From positions 3,541 to 67,540 of the forward strand of contig CALKUH010000045.1 of NCBI GenBank assembly GCA_937996795.1: 64,000 nt of DNA, in the 5' to 3' direction. The notes beneath the pieces were generated by a model. It searched no databases, had not been told where the DNA came from, and saw only the letters and a program-made list of their open reading frames with translations. A program made the translations under genes and the position numbers. Of this stretch, positions 12,077 through 22,396 are shown piece after piece. This DNA is from an uncultured Verrucomicrobiota bacterium (GTDB lineage Bacteria; Verrucomicrobiota; Kiritimatiellia; CAIVKH01). Positions within the stretch are counted from its first letter, which is position 1. Each line of letters opens with the position of its first letter.

Positions 12077-13846
12077 ATGCGCCGCATCGCCGCACTAATT
12101 TTGCTCCCGCTGGCCCTCGGCTGTGCCGGGCGTCTGGAGGAAGATGCTGCACTGCGCGATCGCACGCTGTACCTCTCCACGCTCCGCATCCGCGGGTTCG
12201 ATCCGGCGAAGGTCTCGGATGTCCCGTCCGCCCAGGCGATCCAGCGTGTGTATGAGGGGTTGCTGCAGATCTCTTATCTTGACCGGCCGTACCGCCTGGA
12301 GCCGTTGCTGGCCGACTCGATGCCGGAGCGTTCGGCGGACGGTCTCCGCTACACCTTCCGGTTGCGCCGGGGCCTATATTTTGCTGACGACCCTTGTTTC
12401 CCCGGCGGGCGCGGGCGCGAGGTCACGGCGGAGGATTTCGTCTATTCGATCAAACGGATCGCGGATCGGAAGGTCGGCTCCTCCGGGTGGTGGGCGTTTG
12501 ACGGGCGCATCCGCGGCCTGAATGCGTTTCGCGAGGCGTCGTCCGCGAGCGGTCCGACTGACTACACGCTGCCGGTCGAGGGATTGCGCGCAATCGATCC
12601 CCATACGCTGGTGATCGAACTCACCGCGCCGTATCCGCAATTCCTGTGGATCCTCGCGATGCATTACGGCGTCGTCGTCCCGCGCGAGGCGGTCGAAACC
12701 TATGGCGATCGCTTCAGCAGCCGGCCCGTCGGCACGGGGCCCTACCGCCTCACGGAATGGAAGCGCAACTACCGGATGGTGTTCGAACGCAATCCGAAAT
12801 GGGCGGAGACTGGGCGGGGGGACCGCTACCCCGTGTCCGGTGAAGCAGGGGACGCGGAGCGGGGGCTTCTTGCCGACGCGGGCAAGTCCCTGCCGTTAAT
12901 TGACCGTATTGTCAGCTACGTCGTCGCGGACCCCGCGACGCAGTGGATGATGTTCCTGCGCGGGCAGTTGCTGGAGACCGACATCGCGCGCGACAACTGG
13001 AGTGTCGTGGTCGACGCGCAGGGCGCCCTGTTGCCGGAATTGCAGGCGCGCGGGATCCAACTGGTTGTCGCGCCGCAACTGCGCATCACCTATGTCGGGT
13101 TCAACATGGACGATCCCGTCGTGGGCACGAACCGCTTGCTCCGCCAGGCGCTCAGCAGCGCATTCAACGCGGGGGAATGGATCAAGCTGAACAACGGACG
13201 TGTGCGTCCCGCCATTAGCCCCATCCCCAGCGCGTTGCCCGGTCACGAGGCGGACTATGCGCCATGGCGATACGACCTCGAGCGCGCGAAGCGGCTCCTG
13301 GCCGAGGCGGGCTATCCGGAGGGACGTGATCCGGCGACCGGGCGCCGGTTGGAACTCACGCTTGATCTGGGCCGCGCGGATGACCTGGAGCTGCGCCAGT
13401 CCGCCGAATTGCTGACCGCCTTCTTCGAGCGCATCGGCGTGGTGCTGCGCCTGCAATTCAACAATGGCCCCGCGTTCTACGAGAAATTGGAGCGGCGCCA
13501 GGCGCAGCTCTTCTACTTGAGTTGGATCGGCGACTACCCCGACGCGGAAAACTTCCTCCAGTGTTTCTACGGGCCGAACGCATCGCCCGGATCCAACCGC
13601 GCGAATTACCGGAACCCCGCCTTCGATGCGCTTTTTGAACGGGCGCGCGGGATGGAGGATTCGCCGGAGCGCACGGCCCTTTACGCCGAACTGGCGCGCA
13701 TCGTGATCGAGGATTGCCCGTGGCTGCTGCTTTCGGAGCCGCTGACCTACACCCTCCATCACGAGCGCCTCCGCAACCGCAAGCCGCACCTCTTCTCCTT
13801 CGGCATGGAGAAATATTACCGGTTGGAGGCCTCGGCCCCGCGATGA
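12077..13846 (+). CDS. ABC transporter substrate-binding protein, family 5 (Opp/Dpp-like), lipoprotein
   Basis: The SBP_bac_5-like sequence is present. The N-terminal signal has a cysteine (LALGCAG). Confidence 0.8.
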   Translation: MRRIAALILLPLALGCAGRLEEDAALRDRTLYLSTLRIRGFDPAKVSDVPSAQAIQRVYEGLLQISYLDRPYRLEPLLADSMPERSADGLRYTFRLRRGLYFADDPCFPGGRGREVTAEDFVYSIKRIADRKVGSSGWWAFDGRIRGLNAFREASSASGPTDYTLPVEGLRAIDPHTLVIELTAPYPQFLWILAMHYGVVVPREAVETYGDRFSSRPVGTGPYRLTEWKRNYRMVFERNPKWAETGRGDRYPVSGEAGDAERGLLADAGKSLPLIDRIVSYVVADPATQWMMFLRGQLLETDIARDNWSVVVDAQGALLPELQARGIQLVVAPQLRITYVGFNMDDPVVGTNRLLRQALSSAFNAGEWIKLNNGRVRPAISPIPSALPGHEADYAPWRYDLERAKRLLAEAGYPEGRDPATGRRLELTLDLGRADDLELRQSAELLTAFFERIGVVLRLQFNNGPAFYEKLERRQAQLFYLSWIGDYPDAENFLQCFYGPNASPGSNRANYRNPAFDALFERARGMEDSPERTALYAELARIVIEDCPWLLLSEPLTYTLHHERLRNRKPHLFSFGMEKYYRLEASAPR

Positions 13847-15102
13847 TGCGTTTTGTCCTCAGGCGATTGTTGCAGATGGCGCCGACGGTGCTGGGGGTGA
13901 TCGTCGTCACGTTTGTCCTGTTCAACTTCGTGGGCGGAAGCCCGGCCCGGATGAAATTGGGCGACAAGGCCTCGCCGCAGGCGCTGGAGGAGTTCGACGA
14001 GCAGCGCGGCTACAACAAGCCGCTTTTCTGGGGAAGCCGGGCGCCGACGCGTGCGCTCGCCGACACCGATTTCGCGCAACAGGCCGGGGCGTGGGGCACG
14101 CTGCCGGGCGCCGCATGGCAGGACGGTGTGTTGAGGGTTTCCGCCGCATCCACATGGGCGCCTCCCTTCGCCTTTCCCCTGCGCCCGGACAGCGCCTACA
14201 CGTGGAGCGTGCGCTGGCGGGTGGCGGGTGAATCCGCGTGGGCGCAGACGGAACTGTCCGTGGCCCGCGGCGATGCCGCGGGCGCCGTTTTGCGCGAGTG
14301 GGTCGGGGGGCGCGAACTGGAGCTGGCGTCGATTTCGCTGCGGCGGGTGATGGATCGTCCCTGGGACTCGCAGTTCGTCTTTTACCTGCGCCAGTTGGCG
14401 CGCCTGGATTTTGGCGTCTCAAGCAGCGCCAACGTCCCGGTGATCGACCTGTTGCGCGAAGGGATCGGGCCGACGCTGGCGCTCGCATTCCCGATCCTCT
14501 TGCTGGAAACCGCCCTGAGCATCGCGCTCGGTCTGTGGAGTGCGTATTTCCGCGGGCGCTGGCCGGACCGCGTGCTCGTGCTCGGCGCGGTGGTGCTGAT
14601 GAGTGTGAACTACCTGGTCTGGATCGTGGCGGGACAGTACCTGCTGGCGTATCGCCTCGGCTGGTTTCCCGTGTGGGGCTTCGAGTCGTGGGCCTACCTC
14701 GCGCTGCCCATTTGCATCGGCGCGTTCAGCGGGCTTGGTTCGGGCGTCCGCTTCTACCGCACGATCCTGCTGGATGAGCTGTACCGCGAGTATGTGCGCA
14801 CCGCCCACGCGAAGGGCCTCGGTCGCGGCCGCGTCCTCTTTGTCCACGTTCTCCGCAACGCGATGGTGCCGATCATCACGCAGGTGGTGCTCTCCATCCC
14901 GTTCCTGTACACGGGCAGCCTGCTGCTGGAGAGTTTCTTCGGCATTCCCGGCCTCGGCTACCTGAGCGTCAACGCAATCAACGACAGCGATGTCGATGTT
15001 GTGCGCGCGATCGTGGTGCTCGGTTCCGTGCTGTATCTGGCGGCGAATCTGCTCGCGGACCTCTGCTATGCGTGGGTCGATCCCCGGGTGAAGCTGTCAT
15101 GA
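13843..15102 (+). CDS. ABC permease, OppB/DppB-like, with a roughly 150-aa insertion between TM1 and TM2
   Basis: BPD_transp_1 blocks are present. There is an ATGATG overlap with the upstream stop. The extra periplasmic segment is seen by length. Confidence 0.75.
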   Translation: MMRFVLRRLLQMAPTVLGVIVVTFVLFNFVGGSPARMKLGDKASPQALEEFDEQRGYNKPLFWGSRAPTRALADTDFAQQAGAWGTLPGAAWQDGVLRVSAASTWAPPFAFPLRPDSAYTWSVRWRVAGESAWAQTELSVARGDAAGAVLREWVGGRELELASISLRRVMDRPWDSQFVFYLRQLARLDFGVSSSANVPVIDLLREGIGPTLALAFPILLLETALSIALGLWSAYFRGRWPDRVLVLGAVVLMSVNYLVWIVAGQYLLAYRLGWFPVWGFESWAYLALPICIGAFSGLGSGVRFYRTILLDELYREYVRTAHAKGLGRGRVLFVHVLRNAMVPIITQVVLSIPFLYTGSLLLESFFGIPGLGYLSVNAINDSDVDVVRAIVVLGSVLYLAANLLADLCYAWVDPRVKLS

Positions 15103-21431: not shown

Positions 21432-22396
21432 GCGCGCCGCTGCTCGAGGTCAACGGGCTCACCACCTGGTATCCGATCCGGCGCGGCGTCTGGTCCCGCA
21501 CGGTGGGGCAGGTCCAGGCGCTCACGGAAGTGGACCTCGTCCTGCGCGCGGGCGAGACCCTCGCCGTGGTCGGCGAGTCCGGTTGCGGGAAGACGACGCT
21601 CGGCCGCACGCTGGTCGGCCTCGAACGCCCGCGCGCCGGCGCGATGCGCCTCAACGGACAGCCGTTGCCCTCCGGTGTGCGCACGCCAGAGGTGCAGCGA
21701 CGGATCCAGATGATTTTCCAGGACCCCGCGGCGTCCTTGAATCCGCGCCTCACCGTGCTCGATCTGTTGACCGAGGCCATGGCCTTCCACGGCATGCTCA
21801 GCGGCCCGCGTGAGCCGGCCGCGCTCCAGTTGCTGTCCGATGTCGGCCTCGACGCCGGCGCGCTGCACCGCTATCCGTTTGAATTCTCCGGCGGCCAGCG
21901 CCAGCGCATCAGCGTCGCCCGCGCGCTCGCGCTGCGCCCCTCGGTGATCATATGCGACGAGGCCGTCAGCGCTCTCGACGTCTCCGTGCAGGCGCAGGTC
22001 CTCAACCTGCTCATGGACCTGAAGGAAAAATACGCGTTGTCCTATCTCTTCATCTCGCACGACATCAACGTCGTCCGGTTCATCGCCGACCGCGTCGCCG
22101 TGATGTACCTCGGCCGCGTGGTCGAGGAGGGGCCGACGGAGGCCGTGCTCGCGCGCCCGATGCATCCCTACACGCAGGCGCTCATCAGCGCCGTGCCCGC
22201 GCCGGGCGTCGCGCGCCCCCCGCGCCAGATCCTGCGCGGCGAATTGCCGTCGCCCGCAAACCCGCCCGCCGGCTGCCCGTTCCATCCGCGCTGCCCGCGC
22301 GTGATGGACGCCTGCCGCACGGCGCGCCCCGGACCGGTGACGACACCGGAACTGCAAAAGGTGTGTTGTCACCTCTATCCGCCGCGGGTATCCTGA
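21428..22396 (+). CDS. oppF: Oligopeptide/dipeptide ABC ATPase, OppF-like
   Basis: It has Walker A GESGCGKTT, the FSGGQRQR signature and an oligo_HPY tail. Confidence 0.85.
   Translation: MSAPLLEVNGLTTWYPIRRGVWSRTVGQVQALTEVDLVLRAGETLAVVGESGCGKTTLGRTLVGLERPRAGAMRLNGQPLPSGVRTPEVQRRIQMIFQDPAASLNPRLTVLDLLTEAMAFHGMLSGPREPAALQLLSDVGLDAGALHRYPFEFSGGQRQRISVARALALRPSVIICDEAVSALDVSVQAQVLNLLMDLKEKYALSYLFISHDINVVRFIADRVAVMYLGRVVEEGPTEAVLARPMHPYTQALISAVPAPGVARPPRQILRGELPSPANPPAGCPFHPRCPRVMDACRTARPGPVTTPELQKVCCHLYPPRVS

Follow-up and report, generated by a model that had tools for sequence, protein, structure and literature searches.

The window analysed here is a stretch of 64 kb from contig CALKUH010000045.1 of an uncultured Verrucomicrobiota bacterium (Kiritimatiellia). 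Positions 12077-22396 of the window, on the + strand, hold a row of eight genes for ATP-binding cassette (ABC) importers of the Opp/Dpp family, in the order A1-B1-C1-A2-B2-C2-D-F (A, binding protein; B and C, permeases; D and F, ATPases). Two permease pairs are encoded together with a single ATPase pair, and we argue below that the two pairs may well be served by the same ATPases. All eight genes are intact, start with ATG and have no internal stop codons:

A1, 12077-13846, + strand: binding protein, 589 amino acids (aa); Pfam SBP_bac_5, E 1e-67
B1, 13843-15102, + strand: permease, 419 aa; Pfam BPD_transp_1 and BPD_transp_1_N
C1, 15099-15974, + strand: permease, 291 aa; Pfam BPD_transp_1, E 7.5e-30
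A2, 16026-17783, + strand: binding protein, 585 aa; Pfam SBP_bac_5, E 4e-70
B2, 17822-18856, + strand: permease, 344 aa; Pfam BPD_transp_1
C2, 18853-20448, + strand: permease, 531 aa; Pfam BPD_transp_1
D, 20445-21431, + strand: ATPase, 328 aa; Pfam ABC_tran and oligo_HPY
F, 21428-22396, + strand: ATPase, 322 aa; Pfam ABC_tran and oligo_HPY

Domain calls were taken from Pfam and subfamily calls from NCBIfam with its curated cut-offs. Permeases were assigned to the B type or the C type by their best NCBIfam matches, and the EAA coupling-helix regions were read in the translations of all permeases. The row carries family-5 (cluster C) binding proteins, B-type and C-type permeases and two oligo_HPY ATPases, as expected for Opp/Dpp (PepT, TCDB 3.A.1.5-type) importers. 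It departs from the canonical five-gene Opp/Dpp operon, which has one pair of each, by its two permease pairs to one ATPase pair. The first-pass annotation of this DNA had described eight + strand genes with two A-B-C sets and one D/F pair, and this was confirmed by translation and Pfam. Its account of the junctions was exact: ATGA overlaps of 4 bp are present at A1/B1, B1/C1, B2/C2, C2/D and D/F, and only the junctions flanking A2 are gaps (C1/A2, 51 bp; A2/B2, 38 bp). A tblastn search with the eight proteins (E ≤ 1e-3) revealed no other ABC ATPase in the 64-kb window, and neither a permease nor a binding protein of the Opp/Dpp family beyond those of the row. The same eight-gene row was found in three related loci (L082, L176 and L097) with C2 only 51-76% identical, and the row is therefore not a chance arrangement. 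Thus, we consider the gene arrangement to be real and conserved and, apparently, undescribed.

Two subfamilies of binding proteins and permeases

The two A-B-C sets share little sequence. Pairwise identities are 21% for A1/A2, 30% for B1/B2 and 32% for C1/C2, and by their sequence assignments the sets are paralogues of long standing from different subfamilies, set 1 being generic Opp/Dpp/HbpA-like and set 2 YejA/B/E-like. The first-pass annotation had treated the row as a doubled system, with tandem duplicates as one possibility, and the repeated A-B-C order would suit an opp operon that was recently duplicated in tandem and then lost one ATPase pair. Such an origin is ruled out by the low identities and the different NCBIfam and PDB assignments of the two subfamilies. 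Each set also has its own orthologues across phyla, and we give a recent duplication practically no chance.

In the first set (unit 1), the N-terminus of A1, MRRIAALILLPLALGC, reads as a lipoprotein-type signal with a lipobox, and A1 is probably a lipoprotein. The solved structures closest to it are those of peptide binders (8upi, HbpA, DppA, OppA and MppA). B1 and C1 match generic Opp, Nik and Gsi models of NCBIfam. B1 exceeds the usual length of OppB/DppB by about 100 aa and has a periplasmic, beta-rich insert of about 110 residues (residues ~62-172; window 14026-14358). The predicted structures used here are AlphaFold2 (AF2) models. In the model of B1, the mean predicted local distance difference test (pLDDT) score is 78 and the insert reaches 84-94. 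The membrane part matches DppB/OppB chains in a model-based fold comparison, and no fold in the PDB matches the insert significantly. The insert is kept throughout the B1 family, whose members measure 390-480 aa.

In the second set (unit 2), A2 has an ordinary Sec signal peptide, as read from the sequence. Among proteins of known structure, it is closest to 4ony, YejA of S. meliloti and E. coli (7z8e, 7z6f, 8fsr) and MbnE. The matches to the YejA structures of S. meliloti and E. coli (E 1e-48 to 2e-43) identify A2 as a YejA-type binding protein. The best NCBIfam match of B2 is YejB (NF011712) with 288 bits, below the cut-off of 445 bits, and that of C2 is the YejE-type microcin C permease (NF011596) with 261 bits, below the cut-off of 439 bits. 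At 531 aa, C2 exceeds the usual OppC/DppC length by about 230 aa. Between its first two membrane helices lies an alpha/beta domain on the periplasmic side, about 250 residues in size (~45-300; window 18985-19752). The AF2 model of C2 has a mean pLDDT of 80, with most of the insert at 85-93. PDB sequence matches cover only residues ~300-525 and none falls on the insert. In a fold comparison by Foldseek, the membrane part of C2 matched DppC/OppC, and the periplasmic domain gave only weak, PAS-like matches (E 0.006-0.05). Among relatives, the long form of C2 (~530 aa) occurs in bacteria of the Planctomycetes-Verrucomicrobia-Chlamydiae group, in Desulfobacterota and in a gammaproteobacterial metagenome-assembled genome (MAG), and a short form (~340-380 aa) occurs in other phyla.

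The ATPases D and F are OppD/OppF-type proteins with oligo_HPY domains and not homodimers of the MalK/MsmX type (CUT1 sugar class). D matches the NCBIfam model OppD with 356 bits and F a DppF-type model with 363 bits; F is 38% identical to D. Against OppD of M. tuberculosis (8j5q), D gives an E value of 6e-124, and the cysteines align. All motifs of both proteins are intact:

D Walker A, 20574-20597, + strand
D signature, 20919-20942, + strand
D Walker B, 20979-20999, + strand
D four-cysteine motif, 21306-21401, + strand
F Walker A, 21572-21595, + strand
F signature, 21884-21907, + strand
F Walker B, 21944-21964, + strand
F four-cysteine motif, 22274-22369, + strand

The cysteine spacing is CX5CX6CX17C in D and CX5CX6CX16C in F, the same as in DppD and DppF of E. 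coli. There, the four cysteines of each protein hold a [4Fe-4S] cluster that is required for assembly (PMC12136057). By analogy, the four-cysteine motifs would make a motor formed by D and F probably sensitive to redox state and oxygen.

D and F are separate genes joined by an ATGA overlap, in contrast to the fused YejF; fused forms are found in relatives such as L010. With its ATPases split, its permeases scoring below the Yej cut-offs and its additional periplasmic domain in C2, unit 2 is classified here as Yej-like and not as a certified member of YejABEF.

One ATPase pair and its possible clients

Relatives were viewed as loci of about 20 kb each. A profile scan for the C2 family, with one genome per species, yielded 80 loci, in which open reading frames were classed by BLAST against the eight window proteins. 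A scan of metagenomes with a B1-family profile added 80 further loci. For the B1 family, downstream ATPases were counted in 32 non-redundant loci that extend 3 kb or more beyond C1, and upstream neighbours in 28 loci with at least 1.5 kb 5' of A1.

Unit 2 together with D and F (or a fused DF) recurs as A2-B2-C2-D-F in Desulfobacterota, Verrucomicrobiota, Lentisphaerota, Planctomycetota, Acidobacteriota, Bacteroidota and others. The surroundings of unit 1 differ between loci. Eight of the 32 B1-family loci have their own ATPase genes, D'F', after C1, and four have A2B2C2DF. The remaining 20 have no D/F-type gene in the locus, and no ATPase gene lies within 3-9 kb 3' of their C1. Directly 5' of A1, the genes tpiA and secG were found in 28/28 related loci, including three with D'F'. 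The D'F'-bearing loci occupy more distant branches of the B1 tree (49-57% identity). Since D'F' occur in these distant branches and tpiA-secG precedes A1 there too, the ancestral form was likely tpiA-secG-A1-B1-C1-D'-F', from which D'F' would have been lost in lineages including that of the window.

The descent of D was followed in a neighbour-joining tree without bootstrap support. Window D nests within a clade whose members are encoded after C2-type permeases in Yej-like operons, and the D' proteins that accompany set-1-type permeases fall into clades of their own. Set-2-linked proteins are 43-82% identical to window D (median 55%), and set-1-linked ones 41-50% (median 44%). The assignment of D to unit 2 by descent, and of F by gene order, is well supported, though not rigorous. 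Two Yej-like loci, L058 (4671-7683; labelled Bifidobacteriales MAG) and L059 (10944-13907; labelled Fibrobacteria MAG), have a third D-like ATPase gene after D-F, an imbalance opposite to that of the window.

Linkage of unit 1 and unit 2 was compared in the closer relatives, with identities given for C2:

Window, L082, L176 and L097 (100, 76, 65 and 51%): A1-B1-C1-A2-B2-C2-D-F behind tpiA-secG
L084 (73%): units 3.2 kb apart, with four genes between them, two on the other strand
L088 (59%): tpiA-secG-A1-A2-(toxin-antitoxin)-B2-C2-D-(toxin-antitoxin)-F-B1-C1
L091 with L173, and also L086 (64%): unit 1 behind tpiA-secG without ATPase; unit 2 elsewhere, followed by CBS, EF-G, YebC and RuvC

The eight-gene row is thus present in four diverged Kiritimatiellia lineages. 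L176 combines the full row with CBS, EF-G, YebC and RuvC on its right, the context that unit 2 has where it stands apart. This suggests an early origin of the row within the clade and later disruption in some lineages. In the rearranged locus L088, ATGA overlaps are found at F/B1 and B1/C1, so that the set-1 permease genes are translationally coupled to a Yej-type F. For an unlinked relative, the entries of B1 (P0149) and D (P0261) list one and the same longest contig (4,387,535 bp), and the displayed loci come from other assemblies; P0149 and P0261 are likely co-resident in one genome. Toxin-antitoxin-type genes (PIN and ribbon-helix-helix, RHH) lie between A2 and B2 in L086 (8526-8963) and L088 (8148-8836); L088 has a second insertion of this type, which separates D from F (12821-13476).

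All eight genes appear to be under purifying selection in comparisons with L082 and L084. The ratio of nonsynonymous to synonymous substitution rates (dN/dS) is 0.12-0.19 for the three genes of unit 1 and 0.05-0.19 for the five genes from A2 to F, values that are rough with dS near saturation. The lowest value, 0.05, belongs to B2, which is 92% identical to its L082 orthologue. As the values of unit 1 resemble those of unit 2, unit 1 is not decaying. This bears on the idea that A1B1C1 is a non-transporting relic after ATPase loss, or has taken on an ATP-independent role such as sensing. Most relatives indeed lack adjacent ATPase genes, as such a fate would predict. However, the frames of A1, B1 and C1 are intact, their dN/dS (0.12-0.24) lies in the range of the complete unit, and the module is kept down to about 50% identity with a fully conserved coupling helix. 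We therefore regard a relic or a sensor as improbable.

Based on these comparisons, we propose that the row encodes two separate type I ABC importers of the Opp/Dpp family (TCDB 3.A.1.5-type), placed end to end. Unit 1 comprises a binding protein and two permeases, has no ATPase genes of its own and in this clade always stands behind tpiA-secG. Unit 2 is a complete Yej-like importer. The single OppD/OppF-type heterodimer would assemble with either permease pair, D docking on the coupling helix of the B-type permease and F on that of the C-type permease. The result would be two ordinary heterotetramers, B1C1DF and B2C2DF, drawing in turn on one pool of D and F. Each translocator would be supplied by a separate binding protein and would thus have a substrate range of its own, probably a peptide-like one. 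Judged at the level of the family, our best guess for the substrates is peptides or cell-wall peptides, and metals are possible.

The first-pass annotation had left the choice between two transporters borrowing the same ATPases and a heteromeric assembly of four permeases. The first option fits the comparative evidence, short of proof. The second, a four-permease transporter on a single D/F pair, has the gene order in its favour, with eight genes in one row. Each half is nevertheless found alone elsewhere, A2B2C2DF in many phyla and A1B1C1D'F' in distant relatives, and the halves are unlinked in several relatives. In addition, Opp and Dpp complexes of known structure are heterotetramers (B:C:D:F) in which each ATPase receives a single coupling helix (PMC12136057). 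Because each half elsewhere is a standard, self-sufficient five-gene system, a four-permease assembly is very unlikely, and we would hardly expect it.

Sharing of one OppD/OppF-type pair by two conventional four-subunit translocators fits the data because the A1B1C1 clade has no ATPase genes, D and F descend with unit 2, and the units stay linked through rearrangements. The coupling-helix regions agree with it. B1 has EYVRTAHAKG...HVLRNAMVPI and B2 has DYVRTVLAKG...HALRNALIPI, with the common motif YVRTAxAKG...HVLxNAxIPI. The docking motifs of B1 and B2 are almost identical, and one ATPase could therefore plausibly fit both.

Several points weigh against ATPase sharing. The EAA region of B1 is equally conserved and equally B2-like in lineages with and without their own D'F', so that the motif speaks for feasibility and does not discriminate. 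The one line of evidence that associates D and F with B1 and C1 is their conserved linkage, and many relatives encode unit 1 far away from any D/F, so that adjacency is not needed for unit-1 function. Another OppD/F-type pair, or a relocated D'F', may serve unit 1 from elsewhere in the genome, beyond the ~20-kb loci and the 64-kb window, and a locus from Kiritimatiellae (L011) carries another Opp-type system with its own ATPase. The missing bootstrap support of the D tree, which is shared by the neighbour-joining tree of B1, and the saturation of dS count on the same side.

The main rival explanation is that of independent neighbours, in which A1B1C1 is powered by a D/F-type pair encoded elsewhere (a relocated D'F' or a third peptide system) and D and F serve A2B2C2 only. 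The distance of unit 1 from any D/F in 20/32 loci (for example L090-L092), the existence of other Opp-type systems with their own ATPase in Kiritimatiellae (L011) and a promoter-like element before A2 that suggests separate transcription all agree with this possibility. It is harder to reconcile with the retention of the eight-gene row in four lineages down to 51% C2 identity and with the translational coupling of F, B1 and C1 in L088. Moreover, no D'F'-clade gene was found in any locus of the ATPase-less lineages, with about 20 kb visible per locus. We consider independent neighbours possible but rather unlikely. A shared pair that forms two conventional four-subunit translocators is the explanation we favour, with somewhat better than even confidence. 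The broader version goes further: D and F would be a true multitask engine alternating between B1C1 and B2C2, and the tpiA-secG-linked A1B1C1 a clade-wide ATPase-less importer of Kiritimatiellia and relatives that borrows Yej-like ATPases. To this we give about an even chance.

Transcription and flanking genes

A terminator between C1 and A2, which the first-pass annotation had named as a finding that would undermine sharing, was looked for in the sequence. No terminator-like site was found in the secG/A1, C1/A2 or A2/B2 gaps, and the number of such sites in the region equals the shuffled expectation. The folds of the gaps are unremarkable (z = +1.65 for C1/A2 and -2.03 for A2/B2), and a search of positions 10000-24000 against Rfam gave one sub-threshold match at chance level only.

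The C1/A2 gap (15975-16025) contains a candidate promoter:

Promoter-like element, + strand: TTGCCA at 15976-15981, a spacer of 17 nt (N17) and CATAGG at 15999-16004, followed by GGAGG 4 nt before the ATG of A2

TTGCCA-N17-CATAGG is also found 5' of A2 in L084. There, genes on the opposite strand and a terminator-like hairpin part A2 from A1B1C1, and A2 of L084 is therefore very probably transcribed from a separate promoter. In the window, the sequence match makes an internal promoter 5' of A2 possible, and the row may consist of two transcription units, which has no bearing on ATPase sharing.

Two further sequence features of the gaps were noted. The 13-mer CGCGKCACTCTGG is present at 16006-16018, just before the A2 ribosome-binding site, and at 17785-17797, 2 nt after the A2 stop codon. 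With one mismatch allowed, the window contains CGCGKCACTCTGG 4 times, where 0.55 occurrences would be expected. The 13-mer is missing from the matching gaps of relatives, which rules it out as a conserved signal. In L082, the A2/B2 gap measures 251 bp (8719-8969), compared with 38 bp in the window, and contains short tandem repeats (GAGACC x5 and runs of CCGCCT and CGGCCT).

The row is closely flanked on both sides:

tpiA, 10757-11521, + strand: triosephosphate isomerase; Pfam TIM, E 4e-101
secG, 11543-11980, + strand: Pfam SecG, E 1e-15; 96 bp 5' of A1
CBS-pair protein gene, 22415-22903, + strand: 162 aa; Pfam CBS x2, E 8e-35; 18 bp 3' of F

At A1 loci, gap and pgk often precede tpiA-secG, and the association of the peptide-type importer with such housekeeping genes is very stable. 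The CBS-pair gene follows F in all close relatives examined (L082, L084, L086, L097, L173 and L176), and it stays with F even where units 1 and 2 are apart (L086 and L173). A regulatory link between the CBS-pair protein and the ATPases is conceivable.

Known systems and implications

Doubled rows with a single ATPase unit were also observed outside the clade. L010 (7035-16717; gammaproteobacterial MAG) has A-B-C-fused DF-A'-B'-C' with an overlap of 4 bp at DF/A', and L067 (7103-17438; Planctomycetota MAG) has A-B-C-D-F-A'-B'-C'. Like the window, both combine a Yej-like A-B-C unit and ATPase genes with a second A-B-C set that has no further ATPase genes. In contrast to the window, the ATPases stand in the middle of the row and the second set belongs to another subfamily, with 26-39% identity to the window proteins; in L010 the ATPase is fused. 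The two doubled rows are independent of that of the window, and doubled rows with a single ATPase unit are therefore a recurrent theme.

Multitask ATPases, which are shared between importers, are established for sugar uptake: MsmX in Bacillus subtilis, MsmK in Streptococcus pneumoniae and MsiK in Streptomyces (PMC7658222). The introduction of that paper, from 2020, mentions such ATPases for bacterial sugar importers only (PMC7658222). The client operons resemble unit 1 in that they encode a binding protein and permeases without an ATPase gene, and they are powered by an ATPase encoded elsewhere (PMC7658222). The engines differ, however. MsmX, MsmK and MsiK form homodimers of the MalK type and have carbohydrate importers as clients, and as a rule their genes are orphans. 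D and F of the window would form an OppD/OppF-type heterodimer with four-cysteine domains, they are encoded inside a client operon, and their proposed clients are permeases of the peptide family. We found no published sharing of OppD/F or DppD/F between permease pairs, a weak negative given the incomplete literature coverage.

The Yej systems provide the nearest precedent for additional clients on the engine of unit 2, whose A2, B2 and C2 have YejA, YejB and YejE as best matches. They import peptides, microcin C in E. coli and muropeptides in Agrobacterium (PMC9790009). In Agrobacterium, the one Yej translocator, YejBEF, also serves a second binding protein, YepA, in muropeptide uptake and recycling (PMC9790009). 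Extra clients on a Yej engine are therefore already known. The difference is that the extra client in the window brings its own two permeases and not just a binding protein.

DppBCDF of E. coli has been solved as a B:C:D:F heterotetramer in which the coupling helix of DppB touches DppD and that of DppC touches DppF (PMC12136057). The window agrees with Dpp and Opp of E. coli and with OppABCD and DppABCD of M. tuberculosis in the types of subunits, in the expected B:D and C:F contacts and in the CX5CX6CX16-17C [4Fe-4S] motif (PMC12136057). Unlike the window, the E. coli and M. tuberculosis systems have one permease pair per ATPase pair. In E. coli, MppA works with Opp, and either DppA or MppA works with Dpp. 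To our knowledge, sharing in the E. coli Opp and Dpp systems is known only at the level of the binding protein.

If two permease pairs do share D and F, we know of no earlier case of shared ATPases among Opp/Dpp importers from our searches, and the principle would extend from MalK-type homodimers for sugars to the large family of peptide, nickel and opine importers. The mechanism would be an extension of a known principle and no new kind of machine. Opp-type modules without ATPase genes would be scored as incomplete or broken, so that genome-based counts of transporters would underestimate function. Two uptake systems competing for one motor would also offer a simple means of coupling or prioritising them. 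The tpiA-secG-A1B1C1 module of Kiritimatiellia and relatives would provide a concrete and widespread test case.

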